Of a DNA stretch of 46,473 nucleotides, positions 3,081-41,320 are shown piece after piece. Position 1 is the stretch's first letter, and every line of letters starts with the position of its first letter. Position numbers and translations under genes: made by a program. Under the pieces are notes generated by a model, which was given only the letters and a program-made list of their open reading frames with translations, ran no database searches and was not told where the DNA came from. Location of the stretch: IMG/VR virus record IMGVR_UViG_3300017909_002824, positions 1 to 46,473 of that record, one strand, 5' to 3'. This DNA is from a virus. Taxonomy: Duplodnaviria; Caudoviricetes.

Positions 3081-5870
3081 ATGGCAACATTAGTAAGTCC
3101 TGGAGTTAGTGTAAGTGTAAGCGACGAATCGTTTTACGCCGCCGCAGGTGCCGGTACTGTGCCTTTGATCGTTATTGCAACGGCACAAGACAAAAAAGCA
3201 CCAGATGGTAGCACAACAGCCGCATACACAACAGCCGCTAAAGCAGGAAAATTATATCAAATTACAAGCCAAAGAGAATTGCTCCAAAGTTATGGTAATC
3301 CAGTGTTTAAAAAGAGTGGTACAACTCCTTTACACGGTGACGAAAGAAACGAACTTGGTTTAATGGCCGCGTACAGTTTCTTAGGAATAGCCAATAGAGC
3401 ATACGTTCTCAGAGCAAACATCGATTTAGATGAATTAACAGCCTCTTCAACTGCACCAGGTGGACCTCTTTCAGATGGCACATACTGGTTAGATACAGAT
3501 GACTCAGCATATGGAGTTTATAAGTATGTAAGCAGTGAATGGGTAAAACAAACAGTAAAAGTTGCATCAAAGTCAGACGTAGATAGCAGTAGTGTTCCTA
3601 AATCTGCATTTGGTGTAGACGAAGAAATTTGTGTAGTCCACTTTACTTCAGCAGGTGCTTCAGCAGGTACAATAAAGTTTTATCAAAAACTATCAGGTAC
3701 TTGGCATCACATTGGTTCAAGTGGATGGAGTTCTGCAGTTTCAGGTTCAGCAGGTGACTTCCAATTTGCAAGTCATTTATCAATTCCAGCCTTAAAAGGT
3801 GGAGGCGGTGCCTTAACAGCAGGTGATATTCATATTAGAACAACAGCACCAAACAATGGTTCTAACATTGTTCTTAAGAAGTACAGCACAAGTTCTGCAC
3901 AGTTTATTTCACAATCAGTAGCATTAAACGATCTTTCAAGTAGTGTTTATACAAACACATATACTTCACCTTCAGCAGGTGACATTTGGGGTAATACCGA
4001 TGGCGAAAATGATCTTGCTACAATTAACTTAACAAAACATAACGGTGGTTCAAGCCTAACTGTAGCGGCAAGTGCCGCACTCACTGATACTGCTATTACA
4101 TTATCAGGTCATTCAGGTAAAATTTCAATTAATTTAAACGTTAATGATGGAACAACTATACCAGTAACTTTTAGTACTGATGGTGACGGCGATGGTAATG
4201 CGAGTGTTGATGACATGGTAACAGACATCAACAATGCAATCAGTGGCGCAAACGCAAGTTTAACATTCAGTAACACACTTATTGCAAGTAATGTTAGTGG
4301 TAAAATTAATCTTGTAGTAAGCAACGGTAAAGACTTAAAAGTATCTGCAGGTAACGTTGCCGGATTTACTCCAGCAAACTTAAACATTACTGCTGGTACA
4401 TACAGTAACTTTGAAGACCTTGTTTATGAAGTAGGCGCATCAGCACCAACAGGATCAATTGGCAATGGCCAACTATGGTACGATGATAACATTGCAAACA
4501 CTAACATTGATATTTTATATCAAAACAGTGGTTCATGGGCAACATGGACAGGTGATGTACAATTTAGTGCTTCTGAGCCAACTAAGCAATCAGATGGTTC
4601 AAGTTCACTTTCAACAGGTGATATTTGGATTGACAGCAGTGACTTAGAAAACTTCCCTATAATTTACAAATATAGTGCCGCAGGCAAATTTGTGTTGATA
4701 GATAACAAAGATCAAACTACTGCAGACGGTATTTTATTCGGAGACTTTAGAGCAAGTGCAAGTGATTCATTGATTAGTACTGCAAACGGATTGCCAAATC
4801 CTGCATTATACCCAAGTGGTATGTTAGCATGGAACAAAATGGCGTCTGTTGGTAATGTTAAACAATATGACAGTTCATCATCTTTATGGAAAGACTACAG
4901 CGGAAACAAAGTAGACGGTTCTCCATATATGATGAGAAAAGCACAACGTAGAGCAGTTGTAATTAAATTACAATCAGTTGTGGCATCTCAGCAAGATATC
5001 AGAAACGAAACTAACCGATTTAATCTTATTGCATGTCCTGGATATCCAGAACTAATTGATGAAATGGTTAGCCTTGGAGTTGAAAGAAAAGAGACTGCTT
5101 TTGTTATTGGTGACGCACCTTTAAGATTGGCCTCAGATGCAACAAGCACAGGTAATTGGGCAAAGAATAGTAATAACGCAGATGTTAACGGTGAAGATGG
5201 ATTAATTTCAAGTTCGCCATATGCAGGTGTTTACTATCCTCATGCATTAACAACTGACCTCGATGGTTCAAATGTATTAGTACCAGGTTCACACATGGCA
5301 CTAAGAACTTTTGCATTTAATGATCAGGTGGCATTCCCTTGGTTTGCACCAGCAGGTTTCCAAAGAGGACTTGTTAACAATGCTTCAAACGTTGGTCACC
5401 TTGATGCAACAACAGGTGAATTTACACCTGTAGCATTGAGCGAAGGACAACGTGATGCTCTTTACATTGATAAAATCAATCCAATTGGCAACTTCCCAGG
5501 AAGAGGAATTGCTGTATTTGGACAGAAAACATTAAACCCAAGTTCAAGTGCATTGGACAGAGTTAATGTTGCAAGACTTGTTGTTTACATCAGAGAAAGA
5601 CTTGACGATATCGTTAAGCCGTTCTTATTTGAACCAAACGACGAAGTTACAAGAGCAAATGCTAAATCAGTTGTAGATAGATTCTTAGGACAATTAGTGT
5701 CTCAAAGAGGATTGTTTGACTTTATTACAGTATGTGATACTACAAACAATACTCCTGCAAGAATAGATAGAAACGAATTGCACATTGACATTGCTGTACA
5801 GCCAGTCAAAGCAGTAGAGTTCATATACATTCCTGTAAGAATTCAAAATACATTAGGCTCAACAGCATAA
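3081..5870 (+). CDS. Contractile tail sheath protein (T4 gp18-like)
   Basis: LVSPGVSV N-terminus; C-terminal PWFAPAG..RG, INPI, FGQKTL, RVNVARL, FEPND, CD.TNNTP..IDRNEL, EFIYIP. Confidence 0.95.
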   Translation: MATLVSPGVSVSVSDESFYAAAGAGTVPLIVIATAQDKKAPDGSTTAAYTTAAKAGKLYQITSQRELLQSYGNPVFKKSGTTPLHGDERNELGLMAAYSFLGIANRAYVLRANIDLDELTASSTAPGGPLSDGTYWLDTDDSAYGVYKYVSSEWVKQTVKVASKSDVDSSSVPKSAFGVDEEICVVHFTSAGASAGTIKFYQKLSGTWHHIGSSGWSSAVSGSAGDFQFASHLSIPALKGGGGALTAGDIHIRTTAPNNGSNIVLKKYSTSSAQFISQSVALNDLSSSVYTNTYTSPSAGDIWGNTDGENDLATINLTKHNGGSSLTVAASAALTDTAITLSGHSGKISINLNVNDGTTIPVTFSTDGDGDGNASVDDMVTDINNAISGANASLTFSNTLIASNVSGKINLVVSNGKDLKVSAGNVAGFTPANLNITAGTYSNFEDLVYEVGASAPTGSIGNGQLWYDDNIANTNIDILYQNSGSWATWTGDVQFSASEPTKQSDGSSSLSTGDIWIDSSDLENFPIIYKYSAAGKFVLIDNKDQTTADGILFGDFRASASDSLISTANGLPNPALYPSGMLAWNKMASVGNVKQYDSSSSLWKDYSGNKVDGSPYMMRKAQRRAVVIKLQSVVASQQDIRNETNRFNLIACPGYPELIDEMVSLGVERKETAFVIGDAPLRLASDATSTGNWAKNSNNADVNGEDGLISSSPYAGVYYPHALTTDLDGSNVLVPGSHMALRTFAFNDQVAFPWFAPAGFQRGLVNNASNVGHLDATTGEFTPVALSEGQRDALYIDKINPIGNFPGRGIAVFGQKTLNPSSSALDRVNVARLVVYIRERLDDIVKPFLFEPNDEVTRANAKSVVDRFLGQLVSQRGLFDFITVCDTTNNTPARIDRNELHIDIAVQPVKAVEFIYIPVRIQNTLGSTA

Positions 5871-8278: not shown

Positions 8279-8290
8279 TAAATAATTAAT

Positions 8291-8761
8291 ATGAAAAAGT
8301 TTGCACAAGGTTCATACGAAATTCAGAATGGCGGAAAGTATGTGGGTACTAAGGCTCCATTCTATCGTAGCAGTTGGGAGTTAGCATTTATGAGAATGTG
8401 TGACCAACATCCTAACATCAAAAAATGGGCAAGTGAAAATGTTAAGATACCCTACCAAAGACCGGACACTGGCAAGTATGCAAACTATGTTCCTGATTTT
8501 ATGATTCAATACATAGACAAAGATGGTTTAGAACATGTTGAACTTATAGAAATCAAACCAAGAAATCAAACCACAATGGAAAGTGCTAAAACGCAAGGAC
8601 AAGCATACCAAACAGCCATAAACGCCGCAAAATGGACAGCGGCACAAGAATGGTGTACAAGAAAAGGAATACGTTTCAAAGTTATAAATGAAGACCAAAT
8701 ATTTAAAAATAACAAACCACGCAAATCTAAAAAACGTATTTCTAAGCCAAGAATCAAATAA
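8291..8761 (+). CDS. Head completion nuclease (T4 gp4-like, TnsA-type PD-(D/E)xK)
   Basis: YRSSWE..FM..CD, WASE, YVPDF, LIEIKP, KW.AA..WC, F.VINED. Confidence 0.88.
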   Translation: MKKFAQGSYEIQNGGKYVGTKAPFYRSSWELAFMRMCDQHPNIKKWASENVKIPYQRPDTGKYANYVPDFMIQYIDKDGLEHVELIEIKPRNQTTMESAKTQGQAYQTAINAAKWTAAQEWCTRKGIRFKVINEDQIFKNNKPRKSKKRISKPRIK

Positions 8762-8769
8762 ATACCAAT

Positions 8770-9255
8770 ATGACTAAGAAATTAGAAGAAGAATTTAACT
8801 TACCGCCTATTGAAGAAGCAACAGCCGAATCAGTGCCATCTATTCAAGAGTCTAAAACACAGATAGAGGAGTACAAAGAGGCATTGAGTTTAAGTGAAAA
8901 GATCAATAATGCTTTTAAAGAAGTACAAGGGTTAGACGAACACGAATCTGAAATGACTGAAATTGGCAAAGAAGCCTTAGACAGTTATAGACAGTTAATG
9001 GACCTTGGTATGAATGTTAGTGATATGGCGGCAGGTAAAGTATTTGCAGAAGCAAGTAATATGTTAAAAATTGCTCTTGAGGCCAGCGATGCTAAAACAA
9101 AAGCAAAATTACAACAAATAGATTTAATGATTAGAAAACAACGTGCTGATAAAATGGGCGGTGGTTCAAACGATGATGTGCAACTTGGACAAGCAACTGT
9201 GTTTGATAGAAACGAATTGTTAAAAATTGTAACAGAAACTAAACCGTCCAAGTAA
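8770..9255 (+). CDS. Probable terminase small subunit
   Basis: Helical 161-aa protein upstream of terL with its own late promoter (8757-8764). Assignment rests on size and position. Confidence 0.45.
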   Translation: MTKKLEEEFNLPPIEEATAESVPSIQESKTQIEEYKEALSLSEKINNAFKEVQGLDEHESEMTEIGKEALDSYRQLMDLGMNVSDMAAGKVFAEASNMLKIALEASDAKTKAKLQQIDLMIRKQRADKMGGGSNDDVQLGQATVFDRNELLKIVTETKPSK

Positions 9256-11256: not shown

Positions 11257-11283
11257 ACCTTTTTTCCCACATAAATAGTACAT

Positions 11284-12876
11284 ATGGCAAGAGGAACCGC
11301 AGATACCACCCTGGTTAAGCAGGGTTATAGTAAAGTTGCATATACTGATGACACAATTTTAGATTTTAAAAATTGTGCTGATCCAGTTTCAGGTGCATTA
11401 TACTTTATGGAAAATCACATGAAAATTCAGCACCCTACTAAAGGTGCTATGAGTTTTGCACCTTTTGACTATCAATATGAACTTATAAAAAACTATAATG
11501 ATTACAGATATAGTATTAACATGCTGGGCAGACAGATGGGTAAAACCACTGTGGCGGCAGGATACTTGCTGTGGTATGCTATGTTTAAACCAGATAGCAC
11601 AATATTAGTTGCGGCTCACAAGGCGGCAGGTGCTCAGGAAATAATGCAACGTATAAGATATGCATATGAAAGTGTACCAGATCATATTAGGGCAGGTGTT
11701 ACAGAATACAACAAAGGTAGTATAAGTTTTGATAATGGTAGCAGAATTGTAAGTGCTACAACTACTGAAAACACTGGTAGGGGTATGTCACTAACATTAA
11801 TTTACTTAGACGAGTTTGCTTTTGTGCCTCCTCGAATTGCCAAAGAGTTTTGGGCATCATTATCGCCTACACTTGCTACAGGCGGTAGAGCAATTATTAC
11901 AAGTACACCTAACAACGACGATGATACATTTGCAAGTATATGGAAACAAGCATGTAGAACATTTGATGAAACTGGTGAAGAGCAAGATGTTGGTATAAAT
12001 GGCTTTAAATCTCTTTTAGCAAAATGGGATGAACATCCTGAAAGAGATGATGAATGGGCATTTGAGGAACGCAGTAGAATTGGTGAAGAACGTTTTAGAC
12101 GTGAGCATGAATGTGAATTTGTCATATACGACGAAACATTAATCTCTCCTCTTAAACTTTTAGAACTGTTTGGGGTAGATCCTTTATACAGAAGCGGTCA
12201 AGTAAGATGGTACAAAAACCCTTCACCAGAATGCATGTACACAGTTTCGTTAGATCCAAGTAGTGGTACAGGTGGCGATAATGCGGCAATACAAGTTATA
12301 GAATTACCAACAATGATTCAAGTTGCAGAATGGAGTAACAACAAAGTACCCATAGAAGGCCAAATAAAAGTAATGATGGAAATTATGCAGTACATCAAAG
12401 AAAATGGCGGTTACCAAATTTATTGGACAGTTGAGAATAATACTATTGGTGAAGCGGCACTTGTGGTAATCAGAGACACAGGAGAAGAAAGTTTTCCTGG
12501 AGAAATGTTACATGAGCCTAAAAAAATACAAGGCAAGAAAGGTCGTAAAGGTTTCCATACCACACATAAAAGTAAAATAGAATCATGTTTAATTTTAAAA
12601 CGTTTGATTGAAAACGATAAAATCAAAATCAAAAGCAAAGCATTAATCAGCGAACTCAAAAACTTTGTTGCAAGAGGTAACAGTTTTGCAGGCAAGCCAG
12701 GCGAGTTTGATGATTTAGTAATGTCCTTAACATTGTCTATAAGAATGATAGAATTTATTAGCACATTTGAAGATGATGTGTACAATGTTGTCAACAGCAG
12801 TTTAGGTTTAGGCGACGCAGACTGGATAACTGGAGACGATGATGAGGATACTCCCTTGCCAATTAGTATAATCTGA
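11284..12876 (+). CDS. terL: Terminase large subunit (T4 gp17-like)
   Basis: Walker A GRQMGKTT, Walker B YLDEFAF, ITSTPN coupling motif, FRREHECEF, nuclease motifs SLDPSSG.GGD and DDLVMS. Confidence 0.95.
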   Translation: MARGTADTTLVKQGYSKVAYTDDTILDFKNCADPVSGALYFMENHMKIQHPTKGAMSFAPFDYQYELIKNYNDYRYSINMLGRQMGKTTVAAGYLLWYAMFKPDSTILVAAHKAAGAQEIMQRIRYAYESVPDHIRAGVTEYNKGSISFDNGSRIVSATTTENTGRGMSLTLIYLDEFAFVPPRIAKEFWASLSPTLATGGRAIITSTPNNDDDTFASIWKQACRTFDETGEEQDVGINGFKSLLAKWDEHPERDDEWAFEERSRIGEERFRREHECEFVIYDETLISPLKLLELFGVDPLYRSGQVRWYKNPSPECMYTVSLDPSSGTGGDNAAIQVIELPTMIQVAEWSNNKVPIEGQIKVMMEIMQYIKENGGYQIYWTVENNTIGEAALVVIRDTGEESFPGEMLHEPKKIQGKKGRKGFHTTHKSKIESCLILKRLIENDKIKIKSKALISELKNFVARGNSFAGKPGEFDDLVMSLTLSIRMIEFISTFEDDVYNVVNSSLGLGDADWITGDDDEDTPLPISII

Positions 12877-18506: not shown

Positions 18507-19004
18507 ATGTCTAAATTAGTAATTAACACACAACACCGTGAGAACTACGGTGCTCATGATTGGGATGGCAAGGGCGAATGTCCGCAGTATTGGAAGTTCA
18601 AAGGTGGCAACACTTATGTTGTACGTGATCTAAGTACTGCTCACATTAACAAAATTGCTGAGCAGGGCATTCCTACTCTAACTACTCTCATCGAAAGCAA
18701 GAGCGAGTACTTCCAAGAGTATATCTTGGGTTGGGAAATTGTTGAGGACGACGCTCGTGAATGCGAGGAGTGGGACTCAGTAATTGAGTTTCAGTGGAAA
18801 GGTGACCGTTGGAGTTGCCTGCGTTTCACAACCAACGGCGAGCATGGTTACATGCGTAAGGAAATACTTGCTAAATCTGAGCAGTGGATTCCACTTGAAG
18901 CAGGGGAGAGGGCTCATTATGCCTGTCAGTACAAAGTCAGCAATGGCTGGTTTGACAGCAATGACCCTCAACTTAAACGTGAAATTGAAAAGGAGGCGGC
19001 GTAA
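18507..19004 (+). CDS. Early hypothetical protein
   Basis: AGGAG RBS; N-terminus TQHRENYGAHDWDGKGECPQYWKFKGG. Confidence 0.75.
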   Translation: MSKLVINTQHRENYGAHDWDGKGECPQYWKFKGGNTYVVRDLSTAHINKIAEQGIPTLTTLIESKSEYFQEYILGWEIVEDDARECEEWDSVIEFQWKGDRWSCLRFTTNGEHGYMRKEILAKSEQWIPLEAGERAHYACQYKVSNGWFDSNDPQLKREIEKEAA

Positions 19005-19327
19005 TGTTAACTGCAGAAATTCATAAATTAGCAACTCGTAATGCCGAGATTGCAACACAAGACTACATTCAAAAGCACGGTGAACATCCGTTTAACTGTG
19101 GTTTTGCTTGGGTTACTGCTTTTGTTAAAGGTAATACAAAATTGGGCAAAAGTTTTATTGCACAAGGTTTTAACAAAAGTTATACTGGTGGATACCAGTT
19201 GTGGAACCCTTCAGGTAATTGCACACAAGATGTAAGTGCCAAAGAAGCAGGTGTAGAAGCATACATCAAAACAGTTGAAACATACTTACCTGATGTAAAA
19301 CTTTACGAAGGGTCAAGGTTAGATTAA
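19004..19327 (+). CDS. Early hypothetical protein
   Basis: TAATG coupling with a GGAGG RBS; CGFAWV motif; C-terminal SRLD. Confidence 0.7.
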   Translation: MLTAEIHKLATRNAEIATQDYIQKHGEHPFNCGFAWVTAFVKGNTKLGKSFIAQGFNKSYTGGYQLWNPSGNCTQDVSAKEAGVEAYIKTVETYLPDVKLYEGSRLD

Positions 19328-19329
19328 GG

Positions 19330-19357
19330 TTGACTTTTCTTCAAAAGATGCTATAAT
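19330..19357 (+). promoter_or_regulatory. Early sigma70-type promoter with extended -10
   Basis: ggTTGACT, 16-nt spacer ending in TGC, TATAAT. Confidence 0.8.
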
Positions 19358-19385
19358 ATTTATATAGTTAGGAAAAAGGAGTAAC

Positions 19386-19559
19386 ATGACAACATTATTT
19401 ATTCTTACAGTTTTAGGACTTTTAGTTGCACCATTTGTGATTACTAAGTCTGCTTTTGCTGGAGTCGACGGTATTGCTGACTTTTTTGCAAGAGTTGTAG
19501 GAGCAATATTTGGATGGTTACTTATACTTTTTGTTATCTTTATTGTTTTTTCTGGTTGA
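19386..19559 (+). CDS. Small two-TM membrane protein (57 aa), not in the ORF track
   Basis: MTTLFILTVLGLLVAPFVITKSAFAGVDGIADFFARVVGAIFGWLLILFVIFIVFSG; own promoter and AAGGAG RBS. Confidence 0.75.
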   Translation: MTTLFILTVLGLLVAPFVITKSAFAGVDGIADFFARVVGAIFGWLLILFVIFIVFSG

Positions 19560-19583
19560 CAAAACACTAAAGTTTGCTATAAT
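19556..19583 (+). promoter_or_regulatory. Early sigma70-type promoter with extended -10
   Basis: ggTTGACA, 16-nt spacer ending in TGC, TATAAT; the -35 box overlaps the stop codon of the previous ORF. Confidence 0.8.
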
Positions 19584-19622
19584 ATACTTATATTTAATTA
19601 ATTGGCTGTGGGAGGCTATGTA

Positions 19623-20657
19623 ATGCAAAATTTTATTAAAATTAAAAAAGGTACTTATCGTAACGCCTTAATCAAAGATACGATTTTTCCAGTAGTAAAA
19701 CCTATTTCTTTTGGTAAGAAAGGTCCTTTTGTTACTGTCGACGGTACTCACTTAATGGGCGACAATGCTAAGAAGATTAGAATTCTTCTTAAGTCACCTG
19801 CTGATATTGAGCCTTCAGATAAGGAGAATTTTGAAATAATGAATCCTGTTGCTCAAGAGCAAAAGAAGAAGGAAGAAACTCCTGAACAAGCAATGGACAG
19901 GATCAAAGGTCGTTTTGAGATTTTAGATCAAATGACTGATGCAGTTGCAAACCAAGTAGTTAGAGGTTTAATTGTGTCAGGCCCTCCAGGAGTTGGTAAG
20001 TCATTTGGTGTTGAAACTATTCTTGAAGAATACGATGCAATGACTAAACTTGCTGGTAAGCCGCCAAGAACAGAAGTTGTAAAGGGTTCTATGACACCAA
20101 TTGGTTTATATCAAACTTTGTTTAACAACTCAAACCCAGGAGATATTCTTGTGTTTGATGACTGTGACAGCATCTTGTTTGATGAAGTATGTTTGAACAT
20201 GCTTAAGGCTGTTTTGGACTCGGGTAAAAAGAGATACATTTCTTGGAAAGCAGAATCGAATGCTTTGCGTAGGGAAGGTATTCCTGATAGGTTTGAGTTC
20301 AAAGGTGGTTGTATCTTTATTACGAACGTGAACTTTGAAAACGTTAAGAGTAAAAAGATCAAAGATCACTTGCAGGCTCTTATGTCAAGATGTCACTACA
20401 TTGACTTGGAAATGGATAGTGTTAGTGATAGGTTCCTTAGAATTAACCAAATTGTTCGAGATGGTATGCTTGACGAATACAAGTTTGGTAAAGAAGGTAA
20501 TGAAGAAATTGTAGACTTCATGGTTCTAAAGGCAAACAGGTTGCGTGAAATTAGTTTGCGAATGGTTCTTAAAATTGCTGATCTTAAGCAGATGTCTCCA
20601 AAGACATGGAAAGAACTTGCAGAGTCAACTTGTATGACAAGGGCCATTATTTCTTAA
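19623..20657 (+). CDS. AAA/P-loop ATPase
   Basis: Walker A GPPGVGKS, Walker B LVFDDCD, FITN sensor, SRC arginine finger; start ATG 19623 after a GGGAGG RBS. Confidence 0.8.
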   Translation: MQNFIKIKKGTYRNALIKDTIFPVVKPISFGKKGPFVTVDGTHLMGDNAKKIRILLKSPADIEPSDKENFEIMNPVAQEQKKKEETPEQAMDRIKGRFEILDQMTDAVANQVVRGLIVSGPPGVGKSFGVETILEEYDAMTKLAGKPPRTEVVKGSMTPIGLYQTLFNNSNPGDILVFDDCDSILFDEVCLNMLKAVLDSGKKRYISWKAESNALRREGIPDRFEFKGGCIFITNVNFENVKSKKIKDHLQALMSRCHYIDLEMDSVSDRFLRINQIVRDGMLDEYKFGKEGNEEIVDFMVLKANRLREISLRMVLKIADLKQMSPKTWKELAESTCMTRAIIS

Positions 20658-20688
20658 ATGTTTAAAGGACCTGTTTATAAATAAATTT

Positions 20689-20762
20689 ACAGGTTCCCCC
20701 TGGTGTCCGATAACCTCCCACATCGGACATTTTAAACCCCCCACTTCTTGGGGGGTTTTCTT
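20689..20762 (+). ncRNA. Candidate small RNA or structured 3' UTR with an anti-SD loop
   Basis: TATAAATA at 20676-83, hairpin TGTCCGAT-aacctcccac-ATCGGACA, then a terminator. Confidence 0.4.
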
Positions 20763-20764
20763 TT
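20734..20764 (+). terminator. Rho-independent terminator
   Basis: AAACCCCCCA-cttct-TGGGGGGTTT followed by tctttt. Confidence 0.85.
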
Positions 20765-20773
20765 AAAAAAGAC

Positions 20774-20801
20774 TTGACAAATCCTGCATGTCGTGTATAA
20801 T
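20774..20801 (+). promoter_or_regulatory. sigma70-type promoter for the TonB-dependent receptor
   Basis: TTGACA, 16-nt spacer, TATAAT. Confidence 0.75.
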
Positions 20802-20830: not shown

Positions 20831-22597
20831 ATGAACGATTTTGATAAAAACTTTCATCTCAATATGTCTCCCTTATATGCTACATTTGTATTCATGCTGT
20901 TTATGTTATGGGCAAGTGAAGTAAAAGGTGATGAAATAGAAGAGGTTATTGTTACTGCTCAACAAGAAAAAACAGTAAAAGCAGATCCAGTAGTAAACAG
21001 TAGACTCTTTAATGTTGTTATGCCAGCATTTACTTGGAACGCAGGTGGGTATGGTGGCTTTATTGGTTACAATGAACGTGGTGCTCAAACAGTACACACC
21101 TCAGTTTTTGTAAATGGTATTCCAGCAAACGACCCTGGATCAAGTTGGTATGATTTTGGACACGATGTTGCAGTTGGACAGTCTATAAAAATTGTATCAG
21201 GTGCAAACGGAGTTGTATATGGGTCAGGTAGTATTGCAGGAACTATATTGATACAGGACGAAATAGAAACTGGCCTAACAGTTAGACGAGGCGGCGACGA
21301 ATTATATCGTGTTGCAGTAAATGATGCAATAGAAGTTAGCAGTTTTAAAGGCAGTATTGGTAGTGTAAGAACTGATAACGATGAAAAAGATACTTATTCA
21401 AATAAGACAGCAAGGTTTAATATAGATGCTGGTGACTTTAGCATTGTAGGTAAGTTTACCGAATACGATTATGATTATGACAACTGTTTTAATCTTGATT
21501 CTGAAAGCAGTAATGATTGTGTACAAGAAGGCCAAAGATACAATGTTGCTATAAGAAACGATTACATTACAATAGGTAGAAACTTTAATAAAGCAGATTA
21601 CTTTACAAATGATATTTCAAATGAAGGCGAGTATGCACATCAAGATCTTACTTATGCTAATGAAAGTTACAGAGACTATTTAAGAATTGGTAACCAATCA
21701 GAACTATCAAAAAATTTAAATTTATCTTATGGTGTTGACGCCGAAAGACAGACTTACAATACTATGAGTGTATCTTCTTTTGGGGAAGTTTTAGAAAATT
21801 ATAAAGATGAAAACTTTGGTGCTTTCCTTAGTATCAATGCAAACTTTATACTTAATTACAACTTTGGTATTAGAATTGGTAATGATGATCAGAACGCACT
21901 TAGACTTGGTATAGAAAAAGACAATTGGTTCTTTAACTTAGGAAACAGTTTTAGAAAACCTAACTTGTATGAAAAGTTTGGCGATGGTTATGTTGATGGC
22001 AATGAAAATCTTGAACCTGAAGAAGGTGTTGGTATTGAGATTGGTTATGGTGTACTAAGTGTTTTTAGATATGACTTTGATCAAACAATAGAGTATGTAC
22101 CAGGATACAGTACAACGGTAGTTGTAACACCTGCAACATACGATGAGGACGGAAACTTACTCACTGAAGCAGTCACAGAAGATGTTTGGACTAATGCAAC
22201 TTATTCGAACACAGGCAACTATACAACACAAGGCATTAGATTTGCAAATAATTTTGGTCCATTTTTTGTAAGTGTAAACTATACAGATACTGATCAACCG
22301 AGAGTGCCAAAGTATATGGGAGCAGTTGCTTGGACGCAAACTTTTTCTGATGTAAATGTAAAAATAAAATATGCTTTTAATTTAGATAGAGAACCAAGTG
22401 TTTGGGATATGTTACCTGAAGGCCAAGACAAATTAGACGATTTAAATAAACTTGATTTGTATGTTACAAGGGAATGGCCTAATGGTGTAACAGTTGCCTT
22501 CAGAGGAGAAAACTTAACTGACGAAGATACGGAAGTTGTTCCTTTTTATGGTGTACAAGGAAGAGAATTCTTCTTGACAATTAACTACAAATGGTAG
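20831..22597 (+). CDS. TonB-dependent outer-membrane receptor (BtuB-like architecture)
   Basis: Hydrophobic signal-like N-terminus; TonB-box-like EIEEVIVTAQ; plug motifs RGAQ..TSVFVNGIPAND and IVSGANGVVYGSGSIAGTI; FRKPNLYE, NENLEPE, ENLTDE; C-terminal GREFFLTINYKW. Confidence 0.88.
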   Translation: MNDFDKNFHLNMSPLYATFVFMLFMLWASEVKGDEIEEVIVTAQQEKTVKADPVVNSRLFNVVMPAFTWNAGGYGGFIGYNERGAQTVHTSVFVNGIPANDPGSSWYDFGHDVAVGQSIKIVSGANGVVYGSGSIAGTILIQDEIETGLTVRRGGDELYRVAVNDAIEVSSFKGSIGSVRTDNDEKDTYSNKTARFNIDAGDFSIVGKFTEYDYDYDNCFNLDSESSNDCVQEGQRYNVAIRNDYITIGRNFNKADYFTNDISNEGEYAHQDLTYANESYRDYLRIGNQSELSKNLNLSYGVDAERQTYNTMSVSSFGEVLENYKDENFGAFLSINANFILNYNFGIRIGNDDQNALRLGIEKDNWFFNLGNSFRKPNLYEKFGDGYVDGNENLEPEEGVGIEIGYGVLSVFRYDFDQTIEYVPGYSTTVVVTPATYDEDGNLLTEAVTEDVWTNATYSNTGNYTTQGIRFANNFGPFFVSVNYTDTDQPRVPKYMGAVAWTQTFSDVNVKIKYAFNLDREPSVWDMLPEGQDKLDDLNKLDLYVTREWPNGVTVAFRGENLTDEDTEVVPFYGVQGREFFLTINYKW

Positions 22598-39605: not shown

Positions 39606-39953
39606 ATGGCACAATCAAAAGGAAATGGAGCAGGTGTAGCCGATTTTGCGGCAGGTACACTTATCCAAAAACATAACGTTGTAGCAATTTTAGTTGACAC
39701 TGGTGCAGATCTTAGGAACGATGACGACTCTACAAGAGAAGCAGTAGAAAGAGCACTTCAGTTTATTCAACCACTTGCATACGAAGTTAAAGATAACAAC
39801 AGTGGTGAAATACACGCAATAGTTGACGGAAGTCAATTTGATGCGGCGGCCTTACAAACGCAAATTAGAGGTATTGGAAGTATTACTGACCCAACAACTT
39901 ATAACTTTAGTTCAGCATCTGTAACAGCAGGTAGTTCGCTAACAGTAGCATAA
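39606..39953 (+). CDS. Small virion protein, paralog 1
   Basis: Own late promoter (39553-60), strong RBS and terminator; MAQSKGNG. Confidence 0.7.
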   Translation: MAQSKGNGAGVADFAAGTLIQKHNVVAILVDTGADLRNDDDSTREAVERALQFIQPLAYEVKDNNSGEIHAIVDGSQFDAAALQTQIRGIGSITDPTTYNFSSASVTAGSSLTVA

Positions 39954-39968
39954 GTTTAGTTACTTTAT

Positions 39969-39998
39969 AAAAAGAGGCAGTTATAACTGCCTTTTTTT
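39969..39998 (+). terminator. Rho-independent terminator
   Basis: AGGCAGT-tata-ACTGCC-TTTTTTT. Confidence 0.85.
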
Positions 39999-40061
39999 AT
40001 GGAAATGTGATAAATAAAAGCATAGCCTACTTGATAGGCGCATTATATTTAGGAGAAAACA

Positions 40062-40334
40062 ATGGCACAAACAAGAGTAAATGGACAGGTCGATGCCGCT
40101 GAGTTTATCGGTAAAGATGTGTTCTTAAAAAGTTTTACAAGACAAGCAGGTAACATTAGCCAAACAAATCTTGATTCACTCGTTTTAGAAATCCAAAACT
40201 TGAACTTGTCAGTTCTTAAAGTTGGTGATTTTACAGCAGACAGCCAAACAGCAATTAATCTTATTGTTGAAGGTGCTGATAATCTTGCTAACGGTGACAT
40301 CGCAGGTCACGTTATTGCAGACGTCTCATTCTAA
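40062..40334 (+). CDS. Small virion protein, paralog 2
   Basis: Promoter at 40009-16; MAQTRVNG; a 24-nt leader/start is identical to that of paralog 1. Confidence 0.7.
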   Translation: MAQTRVNGQVDAAEFIGKDVFLKSFTRQAGNISQTNLDSLVLEIQNLNLSVLKVGDFTADSQTAINLIVEGADNLANGDIAGHVIADVSF

Positions 40335-40352
40335 GTTTATCTAACTTACATT

Positions 40353-40381
40353 AAAAGGCAGAATAATAACTGCCTTTTTTT
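40353..40381 (+). terminator. Rho-independent terminator
   Basis: AAAAGGCAG-aataataa-CTGCC-TTTTTTT. Confidence 0.85.
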
Positions 40382-40444
40382 GTGACCAAAATTTGATAAA
40401 TAGTTTTATAGGACAAAAAGTCCGCAATAACATAGGAGATTAAA

Positions 40445-40816
40445 ATGGCACAAACAAAAGTGAATCCAACTTACGTTGATGAGGAAAAGTTTTTTATTGG
40501 CCTTAAACCAACCTTTTTTGAAGTTACATTTGGTGCGGCGGTAAATGCAAAAACTGGCCCAACAAGTACAATTCAAACAGTTATTCATGCAATTTTAAAT
40601 GAAAACCTTTCTATCTTAGGCATGAGTGCATTGTATGACACAAATCAAACAATAGCATTTATGGTTGATGGTGAAAAAGGTACTGATACATATGACGGAA
40701 CTAACAGTGAAACCTTAGCGGCTCACTTAGAAGACGTTATTCAAGCATTAGGAACAGTTGACGGTATCGACTTAACAGGTGCTTCATGTACAGCAAAAAC
40801 ATTTGTTTTAGCATAA
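40445..40816 (+). CDS. Small virion protein, paralog 3
   Basis: Promoter at 40395-402; MAQTKVNP; IQALGTVDGIDLTGAS resembles IRGIGSI..YNFSSAS in paralog 1. Confidence 0.7.
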   Translation: MAQTKVNPTYVDEEKFFIGLKPTFFEVTFGAAVNAKTGPTSTIQTVIHAILNENLSILGMSALYDTNQTIAFMVDGEKGTDTYDGTNSETLAAHLEDVIQALGTVDGIDLTGASCTAKTFVLA

Positions 40817-40830
40817 TAAGTTAAACTTAG

Positions 40831-40862
40831 AAAAAAATCCTCCTTTATGGGGGATTTTTTTT
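40831..40862 (+). terminator. Rho-independent terminator
   Basis: AAAAAAATCCTCC-tttat-GGGGGATTTTTTTT. Confidence 0.8.
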
Positions 40863-40915
40863 GGCTAAAGAAAATCTTACTAATCTGATAAATAGTACAA
40901 AAGACGGAGACACAC

Positions 40916-41320
40916 ATGGTTGGAGAGAGAAGTGGAGCAATGGGAAGTTCAGAAGTTGTTTCAGGCAACATTGAATTTTATACATTATTCACTACATTAA
41001 ATATTACCAGAACAGGAGATTACAGCGACAATACACAAAAAGACTTTGAAAGTGTAGTACAGGTTATAGGTCTTAGGGCACAACCTGTAGTAATGAATAA
41101 TCCTGTTACGTTAAATGGTGCCGGAGCAAATGTTTTAGAAAATTACGGAGCACCAAGTTTAACAGGAGCAGGTTATATTTTTAAGTTTGCATTTGAGAGG
41201 GAAGGTGCTCATAGTGTTGACTTATTGAAAACAGAGTTAAATGGTATTGTGCTTAATTCAGGTACAATAGATACATTGAGTTCCGTAAATATGGAATTCA
41301 CTAAACAAGACTTATTATAG
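40916..41320 (+). CDS. Small virion protein, probable distant paralog 4
   Basis: Promoter at 40887-94, GGAG RBS; similar size and composition to paralogs 1-3. Confidence 0.6.
   Translation: MVGERSGAMGSSEVVSGNIEFYTLFTTLNITRTGDYSDNTQKDFESVVQVIGLRAQPVVMNNPVTLNGAGANVLENYGAPSLTGAGYIFKFAFEREGAHSVDLLKTELNGIVLNSGTIDTLSSVNMEFTKQDLL

Follow-up and report, generated by a model that had tools for sequence, protein, structure and literature searches.

A conserved 3′-tail element of a phage AAA+ ATPase message, predicted to fold back on its own ribosome-binding site

To our knowledge, only a few bacterial messages have been shown to be silenced by their own 3′ ends. Type I toxin messages are under about 500 nt long. 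In hok and aapA1/aapA3, the primary transcript of such a message is silenced by a far-downstream anti-Shine–Dalgarno (anti-SD) sequence (PMC6733600). In Staphylococcus aureus icaR, a C-rich 3′-UTR motif forms a helix of ∼40 nt with the message's own SD region, and RNase III cleavage of this duplex was shown; that report leaves open whether the motif acts in cis or in trans (PMC3868564). RNAIII and RsaE are C-rich anti-SD small RNAs (PMC3868564). The two ends of the Bacillus subtilis hbs mRNA also pair directly, in a 14-bp helix that modulates RNase Y cleavage in the leader and, as far as the available part of the source goes, apparently leaves the SD uncovered (PMC5737220). In phage T4, gene e and I-TevI have a late promoter embedded in a hairpin's 5′ arm, so their early and late transcripts take on different folds, and the late start frees the ribosome-binding site (RBS) of a late protein (PMC3014915). 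The open-access literature yielded no case of own-3′-end silencing in a DNA phage, and none that reaches over a kilobase or across inserted genes.

The locus described here belongs to a 46-kb window (46,473 nt, the whole stretch of DNA analysed), a piece of a large tailed phage with genes for a tail sheath, terminase, UvsX, UvsY, helicases and primase, whose relatives are marine viral contigs of up to 340 kb. The gene in question (19623..20657, + strand) encodes an AAA+ ATPase of 344 aa, a homolog of T4 NrdC.10 with an N-terminal beta domain and an AAA+ module. It matches the PHROG profile phrog_1250 over its full length (E 6e-82, residues 5–338), the annotation that the T4 copy of the gene also carries (phrog 1250), and Pfam AAA at E 1e-4. 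Identity is ∼30% to annotated nrdC.10 and 49% to a protein of Pseudomonas phage PA5oct. Walker A and B motifs are present in the family as the invariant columns G-x-x-G-x-G-K and DDCD. The predicted structure (pLDDT 87.9) matches generic AAA+ folds only (TM ≤0.44), and no specific role emerged from the fold search, NCBIfam or the protein atlas. In print, the NrdC.10-type ATPase appears, in the accessible part of PMC1524935, as a domain match only. The PA5oct paper and its supplement contain nothing on the gene, and an IMG/VR search with the PA5oct protein found no relatives.

A single promoter and a single terminator, with no promoter between them, are predicted for the ATPase unit. The early promoter is of sigma-70 type with an extended −10 (TTGACA-16-TATAAT; 19556..19583, + strand) and matches the consensus at 12/12 positions, from which its function is presumed; a similar promoter lies upstream in 92/98 related loci with the element, as judged by a loose pattern. 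The ribosome-binding region TGTGGGAGG(CTAT) occupies 19607..19619 (+), shortly before the start codon at 19623, and the leader forms only a weak hairpin. Behind the ATPase stop at 20657, the initial annotation had placed two hairpins and a strong terminator with no open reading frame among them, and this architecture was recovered in full: no ORF of at least 30 aa is present on the + strand up to the next gene. The first hairpin, P1 (20667..20696, +; predicted fold), has arms at 20667–74 and 20689–96 and holds TATAAATA in its top at 20676–83, exactly where it had been reported. The second, P2 (20702..20731, +), contains the perfect hairpin at 20704–29, built of TGTCCGAT (20704–11), the loop AACCTCCCAC (20712–21) and ATCGGACA (20722–29); it amounts to 10 bp including two G-U pairs, and its loop displays the anti-start sequence at 20710–22. 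The intrinsic terminator (20734..20765, +) consists of a stem at 20734–58 and a T run, would end both the mRNA and any short RNA, and varies in its stem with compensation (alignment, judged by eye). The tail region folds with z = −5.45, and 0/200 shuffles were as low. Among distinct variants, 46/47 have a predicted hairpin that ends at the C-rich linker; where a stand-alone P1 is missing, the predicted hairpin is built from the coding end.

The promoter of the next gene, which encodes a TonB-dependent receptor, starts behind the terminator (20774–20801, +). With its own promoter, its own terminator and a separate promoter for its neighbour, the ATPase would thus form a single-gene early unit. 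No antisense gene to the ATPase was found: a scan of the minus strand gave no sigma-70 site at threshold in 18745–20508 and one weak site at 20535, and a minus-strand TATAAATA at 19357–64 points away from the ATPase. Rfam 15 returned 0 matches in the window at gathering score. One RNA-library contig spans the ORF to 20700 and may be DNA; contigs from seven RNA runs and one other run are of low depth, with no transcript ends visible. Three near-perfect sigma-70 promoters with 16-bp spacers are found within 1.1 kb (18449, 19330, 19556), two of which overlap the end of the preceding gene. The TonB-dependent receptor gene (20831–22597), which has its own sigma-70 promoter, is a frequent neighbour of the ATPase; its nearest match is BtuB (NCBIfam E 2e-10), a match that falls far short of the cut-off.

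The two ends of this unit are complementary. As first noted from the letters, CCTCCCACA at 20714–22 is the exact complement of TGTGGGAGG at 19607–15 in the same ATPase gene, and the match can be extended to 12 of 13 nt, the exception being an A-C mismatch (20710–22 against 19607–19; duplex −18.4 kcal/mol). No other gene in the window compares: the start/3′-tail complement of the ATPase is the longest among 44 genes, the other 43 having ≤7 nt. Likewise, the ATPase is indeed the best target of the P2 loop among the 44 window starts, at −18.1 kcal/mol against −10.8 kcal/mol for the next. When the whole mRNA is folded, 19607–15 is predicted to pair with 20714–22 at 0.89–0.97, with P2 opened. Three details of the initial annotation need adjusting. 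Most bases of the 9-mer lie in the P2 loop as described, but its last base sits in the stem. The SD had been called atypical; the GGAGG inside it is a strong and ordinary core, and it is the upstream GTG that is distinctive. Finally, the exact word TATAAATA, which had been pointed out, is not rare by itself, with 4 copies in the window for an expected 6.25; late-type sites in this phage have TAAATA preceded by a variable base.

Conservation of the two sites was followed in four scans, which gave 255 loci, 143 of them distinct once duplicates had been removed along with loci that lacked a start, a stop or sufficient flank. At ≥64% protein identity, a complement of at least 7 nt that includes the SD core is present in 63/63 distinct loci, and one of at least 8 nt in 58/63; these loci share ancestry and most carry the same 7-mer pair, GTGGGAG/CTCCCAC, so that they count as few events. 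Across lineages, the start and the tail change together. Apart from GTGGGAG/CTCCCAC, the co-changed pairs are CTGTAGGAG/CTCCTACAG, GGGGATGAC/GTCATCCCC, GGAGCTAG/CTAGCTCC, GGAGCCAACCA/TGGTTGGCTCC, GGGCTAGAAA/TTTCTAGCCC, TAACGGAGTATC/GATACTCCGTTA and GGAGATGAGT/ACTCATCTCC. The expectation that the loop would track the RBS sequence in orthologous ATPase loci was thus borne out, and it was quantified in an unselected group of 73 loci at 40–64% identity. Of these, 51 had a terminator no more than 700 nt away; the 85 nt that precede it were compared with the gene's own start, and a match of at least 8 nt was found in 32/51, versus 79/1826 non-cognate pairs and 48/5100 shuffles. No terminator was found within 700 nt in 22/73, and 16 of the other 51 had a complement of <7 nt. 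In a sister clade whose architecture is like that of the window, the loop GTTAGTCATCCCC is fixed and its partner is the SD spacer or the start codon with the next codons; the complement reaches at least 9 nt in 30/32 variants and in 0/1376 control pairs.

The hairpin that displays the anti-start sequence is conserved in its own right. Compensation in the P2 stem had been put forward as a test and is present: across the alignment, 90.5% of 327 cells are paired and 23 are changed on both sides, with 0/500 shuffles as high; the 5′ arm belonged to the search pattern and the 3′ arm did not. A DNA pattern of linker, P2 arm and loop had 137 matches in two collections, of which 134 lie within 80 nt behind an NrdC.10-like ATPase; the remaining three are an assembly gap, a too-short contig and one unrelated match. 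A permutation of the class matrix gave a trace of 90 versus 56.8 (0/200000), on representatives that were picked by eye and are not unbiased. In whole-mRNA folds of hand-picked loci, the SD core paired with its own tail in 11/14 cases versus 17/56 with swapped tails, a soft test that leaves ribosomes out of account. Plain duplex energies were poor at telling cognate from non-cognate pairs, and with dinucleotide shuffles the raw energies are dominated by the terminator arms. At the helix flanks, G-U was not favoured over A-C (6 vs 13).

More distant relatives show that the element follows the end of the operon. In 28/39 distant loci it lies 112–602 nt behind the ATPase stop, past at least one other ORF, and in 27 of these shortly before the terminator, usually shown in a hairpin loop. 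These elements match the ATPase start at 7–11 nt, whereas the starts of the intervening genes match at ≤6 nt (14 loci checked). Within 110 nt upstream of them, TAAATA occurs in 1/39 and a sigma-70 consensus in 0/39. An independent small RNA gene would need a promoter, and its lack in the distant elements therefore favours the mRNA's own 3′ end. In many close lineages, moreover, the motif begins 0–9 nt behind the stop codon, with the terminator after it, which leaves no room for a separate gene. The element is thus a real, strongly conserved RNA element. The initial annotation had named the mRNA's own 3′ end as the alternative carrier, and the co-change of loop and start, the stem compensation and the way the element follows the operon terminator all speak for that choice.

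The reading that we consider likely is that the 3′ tail of the ATPase mRNA folds back on its own RBS and start, with which it has co-evolved, and is predicted to block further ribosome loading; we infer repression of the ATPase by the tail. The unit itself can be read off the DNA: it starts with the promoter at 19556 and ends with the terminator at 20765. Ribosomes would load freely during transcription because the blocker is transcribed last, and the weakness of the leader hairpin would allow translation in that interval. Once the tail is complete, the loop is predicted to seed on GUGGGAGG, P2 to open, and a helix of 9–13 bp to cover the SD. Each message would then yield one short burst of protein, ATPase synthesis would follow early transcription and stop with it, and the silent RNA would perhaps decay faster. 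Translation per message would be set approximately by transcription time, about 20–30 s for 1.15 kb at general elongation rates. The same sequence pattern would fit pairing within one molecule and pairing between two copies.

Judged by its sequence pattern, the phage fold-back would be an icaR-like kind of control in a DNA phage. As in icaR, a 3′-tail motif is complementary to the SD region of its own mRNA. Unlike icaR, it belongs to an early gene of a lytic phage, sits in a hairpin loop beside the terminator in a tail of <110 nt, pairs over 9–13 bp, has many independent sequence solutions, reaches across inserted genes and comes with a candidate late promoter in the tail. With the type I toxin mRNAs it shares long-distance 5′–3′ masking of the SD, here by covariation and prediction only. 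Those messages encode a small toxic peptide countered by an antisense antitoxin, their co-transcriptional hairpins block early translation, and 3′ trimming activates them; the phage unit has a 344-aa ATPase, a loop of 1.1–1.7 kb, no antisense gene that could be found and a weak leader hairpin. A type I toxin–antitoxin locus was ruled out on the size and nature of the protein. RNAIII and RsaE likewise expose C-rich motifs complementary to the SD, and the putative short RNA has two of these; they act in trans on many targets, whereas here the only target that stands out in the window is the element's own start.

Evolution supplies many natural compensatory variants of the element, and these make testable the question raised by icaR, namely how a blocker at the 3′ end can have an effect although translation begins before the transcript is complete. 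A timer that works without protein and permits a single burst from each transcript would be the simplest answer. Such a timer would let phages end early expression in a gene-specific way, with no need for RegB-like nucleases. NrdC.10, whose conservation extends from T4 to marine jumbo phages, would be flagged as a protein whose dose or timing matters.

The most substantial alternative concerns a second use of the same tail. The word TAAATA at 20678..20683 (+), inside P1, is a candidate late promoter with a predicted start at A 20689; its activity is a prediction. In the window, TAAATA stands upstream of 17/44 genes, including 7/8 structural or packaging genes and 0/11 replication and nucleotide genes. 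It occurs in 27/33 stand-alone P1 variants, where 3.9 would be expected from A-T pair flips and loop shuffles; the 27 are related and not independent. It is kept amid 16 distinct flanking contexts and falls in the stem of certain variants but in the loop of others, a pattern that suggests a signal in the DNA and not a shape of the RNA. A start-like pyrimidine-purine at +5/+6 is found in 10/16 P1 contexts and 11/18 intergenic TAAATA sites of the window, compared with 6/24 other sites. On a FastTree phylogeny with weak support at several nodes, the P1 TAAATA is ancestral in the subclade, and a gp55-like sigma is encoded by a subclade member (E 3.5e-7) and a sister-clade genome (E 4.4e-6), that is, in 2/5 partial genomes. 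The promoter would sit in a hairpin 5′ arm, the arrangement described for T4 gene e (PMC3014915). The T4 late start frees the RBS of a late protein; a start in P1 would free a C-rich non-coding 5′ end with no ORF behind it. In the window's subclade, this probable promoter would also make the last 76 nt separately, and on the long mRNA P1 would sequester the bases with which the putative short RNA begins. By eye, the P1 3′ arm (GGTT) is fixed while the 5′ arm drifts via wobble pairs, as if the former were masked in the long RNA but accessible in the short one. Another reading of the P1 TAAATA is an RNase or protein site in an AU-rich loop. Whether the P1 late promoter works we judge to be about an even matter, and the chance of silencing in trans would be lower.

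The initial annotation had made such a late RNA the switch from early to late expression. As an option in the window's subclade the idea survives, with TAAATA kept beyond what the hairpin needs; as a general account it does not, because the word is missing in most lineages that keep the complement (present in 10/69 loci of one set and in 1/39 distant elements). It is also missing in 20/47 variants with the same loop, was lost on at least six branches (FastTree, counted by eye) and is found in only 9/32 sister-clade variants. The 76-nt copy is dispensable, since many lineages are without it. The predicted net gain of trans binding is only ∼−3.9 kcal/mol, and in a co-folding test, with a program that cannot model loop-only contact, the ATPase was outside the best 10 of 44 starts. 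That a separate late RNA of ∼76 nt (20689–20765) from the TAAATA promoter silences the ATPase mRNA in trans, in place of the fold-back, is thus improbable. A dual use can be entertained tentatively, though it too is doubtful: an early timer in cis, joined late by a 76-nt RNA made with a gp55-type sigma, which would silence the remaining ATPase messages in trans and expose the C-rich seed GGUUCCCCCU for a further target. It is also unlikely, if anything slightly more so than a purely late RNA, that the ends pair for stability or ribosome recycling, with the message closed into a loop that protects cleavage sites or that terminating ribosomes open. Precedent exists in the 14-bp hbs helix and its effect on RNase Y cleavage (PMC5737220), the phages BUDD and X1 discussed below pair the extreme 5′ end with the SD free, and many lineages have the motif inside the ribosome's reach of the stop codon. 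However, the helix of the marine clades covers the SD or the start codon nearly always, even where the register has shifted, and the motif can be hundreds of bases from the ATPase stop. We give little credence to the two sites being DNA inverted repeats (the ends of an inversion or excision) or sites of a sequence-specific protein. The near-invariance of the 7-mer in the close clade and the lack of a G-U excess at the flanks would suit them, but between clades the sequence is replaced wholesale with complementarity kept, and the partner is displayed in a covarying RNA hairpin loop. Repeats of 7–12 bp that move in register are unlike a recombinase site, and no flipped arrangement is seen in the 80 loci listed. 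A chance match of a C-rich word near a terminator to a G-rich SD is scarcely credible: any anti-SD-like word does match 4–6 nt of most starts, but the cognate and non-cognate counts (32/51 vs 79/1826; 30/32 vs 0/1376) refute it.

A second C-rich motif, GGTTCCCCCT, lies at 20692..20701 (+) in the 3′ arm of P1 and the single-stranded linker. It is conserved in the subclade (alignment) and has a related form in the sister clade. No second target of the linker or the short RNA stands out among the 44 window starts or in 4–10 partial relatives. AGGGGG ahead of a start codon yielded a single candidate across four genomes, within the coding sequence of the preceding gene, and matches to GGGGAACY outside the element look like coding sequence. 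Against one betaproteobacterial 16S rRNA, the best match of the linker seed was equalled by 5/60 shuffled seeds. A supposed likeness of the linker to 16S helix 45 fails in that rRNA. An anti-terminator role of the linker is not favoured; by eye, the G run of the terminator is broken or shortened in some variants.

Other homologs of the gene vary in what they carry. T4 and other T4-like phages have the ATPase gene without the element, which is therefore not a constant requirement of the protein. In the NrdC.10 homologs of the cultured Xanthomonas phage BUDD (ON758385.1, L411:2210-2260 and 3245-3270) and the cultured phage X1 (OQ427096.1, L492), a 14-nt complement, perfect in BUDD and of the same type in X1, joins the very start of the 5′ leader to the sequence just after the stop and leaves the SD free, which hints that end-to-end pairing can serve purposes other than blocking. 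In PA5oct (NC_071039.1, L081:525-545 and 1710-1730), an 8-nt complement to the SD-adjacent spacer lies in a hairpin stem and an operon follows; this could be a relic or a coincidence. The same phage has a transcribed non-coding RNA, annotated as ncRNA004, 2 kb upstream. In L141 (48% identity; region ∼20–60 nt after the ATPase stop), the only distant lineage with TAAATA upstream of the anti-start hairpin, the word is possibly an independent gain of a late promoter.

Elsewhere in the window, TAAATA stands 5–6 nt before the ATG at 1539–1550, 8279–8291, 8759–8770 and 11272–11284, with the terminase among the genes concerned; at this distance, these late genes would be read from leaderless mRNAs. 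Finally, four short genes in a row at 39606–41320 have 0 PHROG matches and a TAAATA site each; three of them start with MAQ, terminators follow, and the four may be a paralog array.
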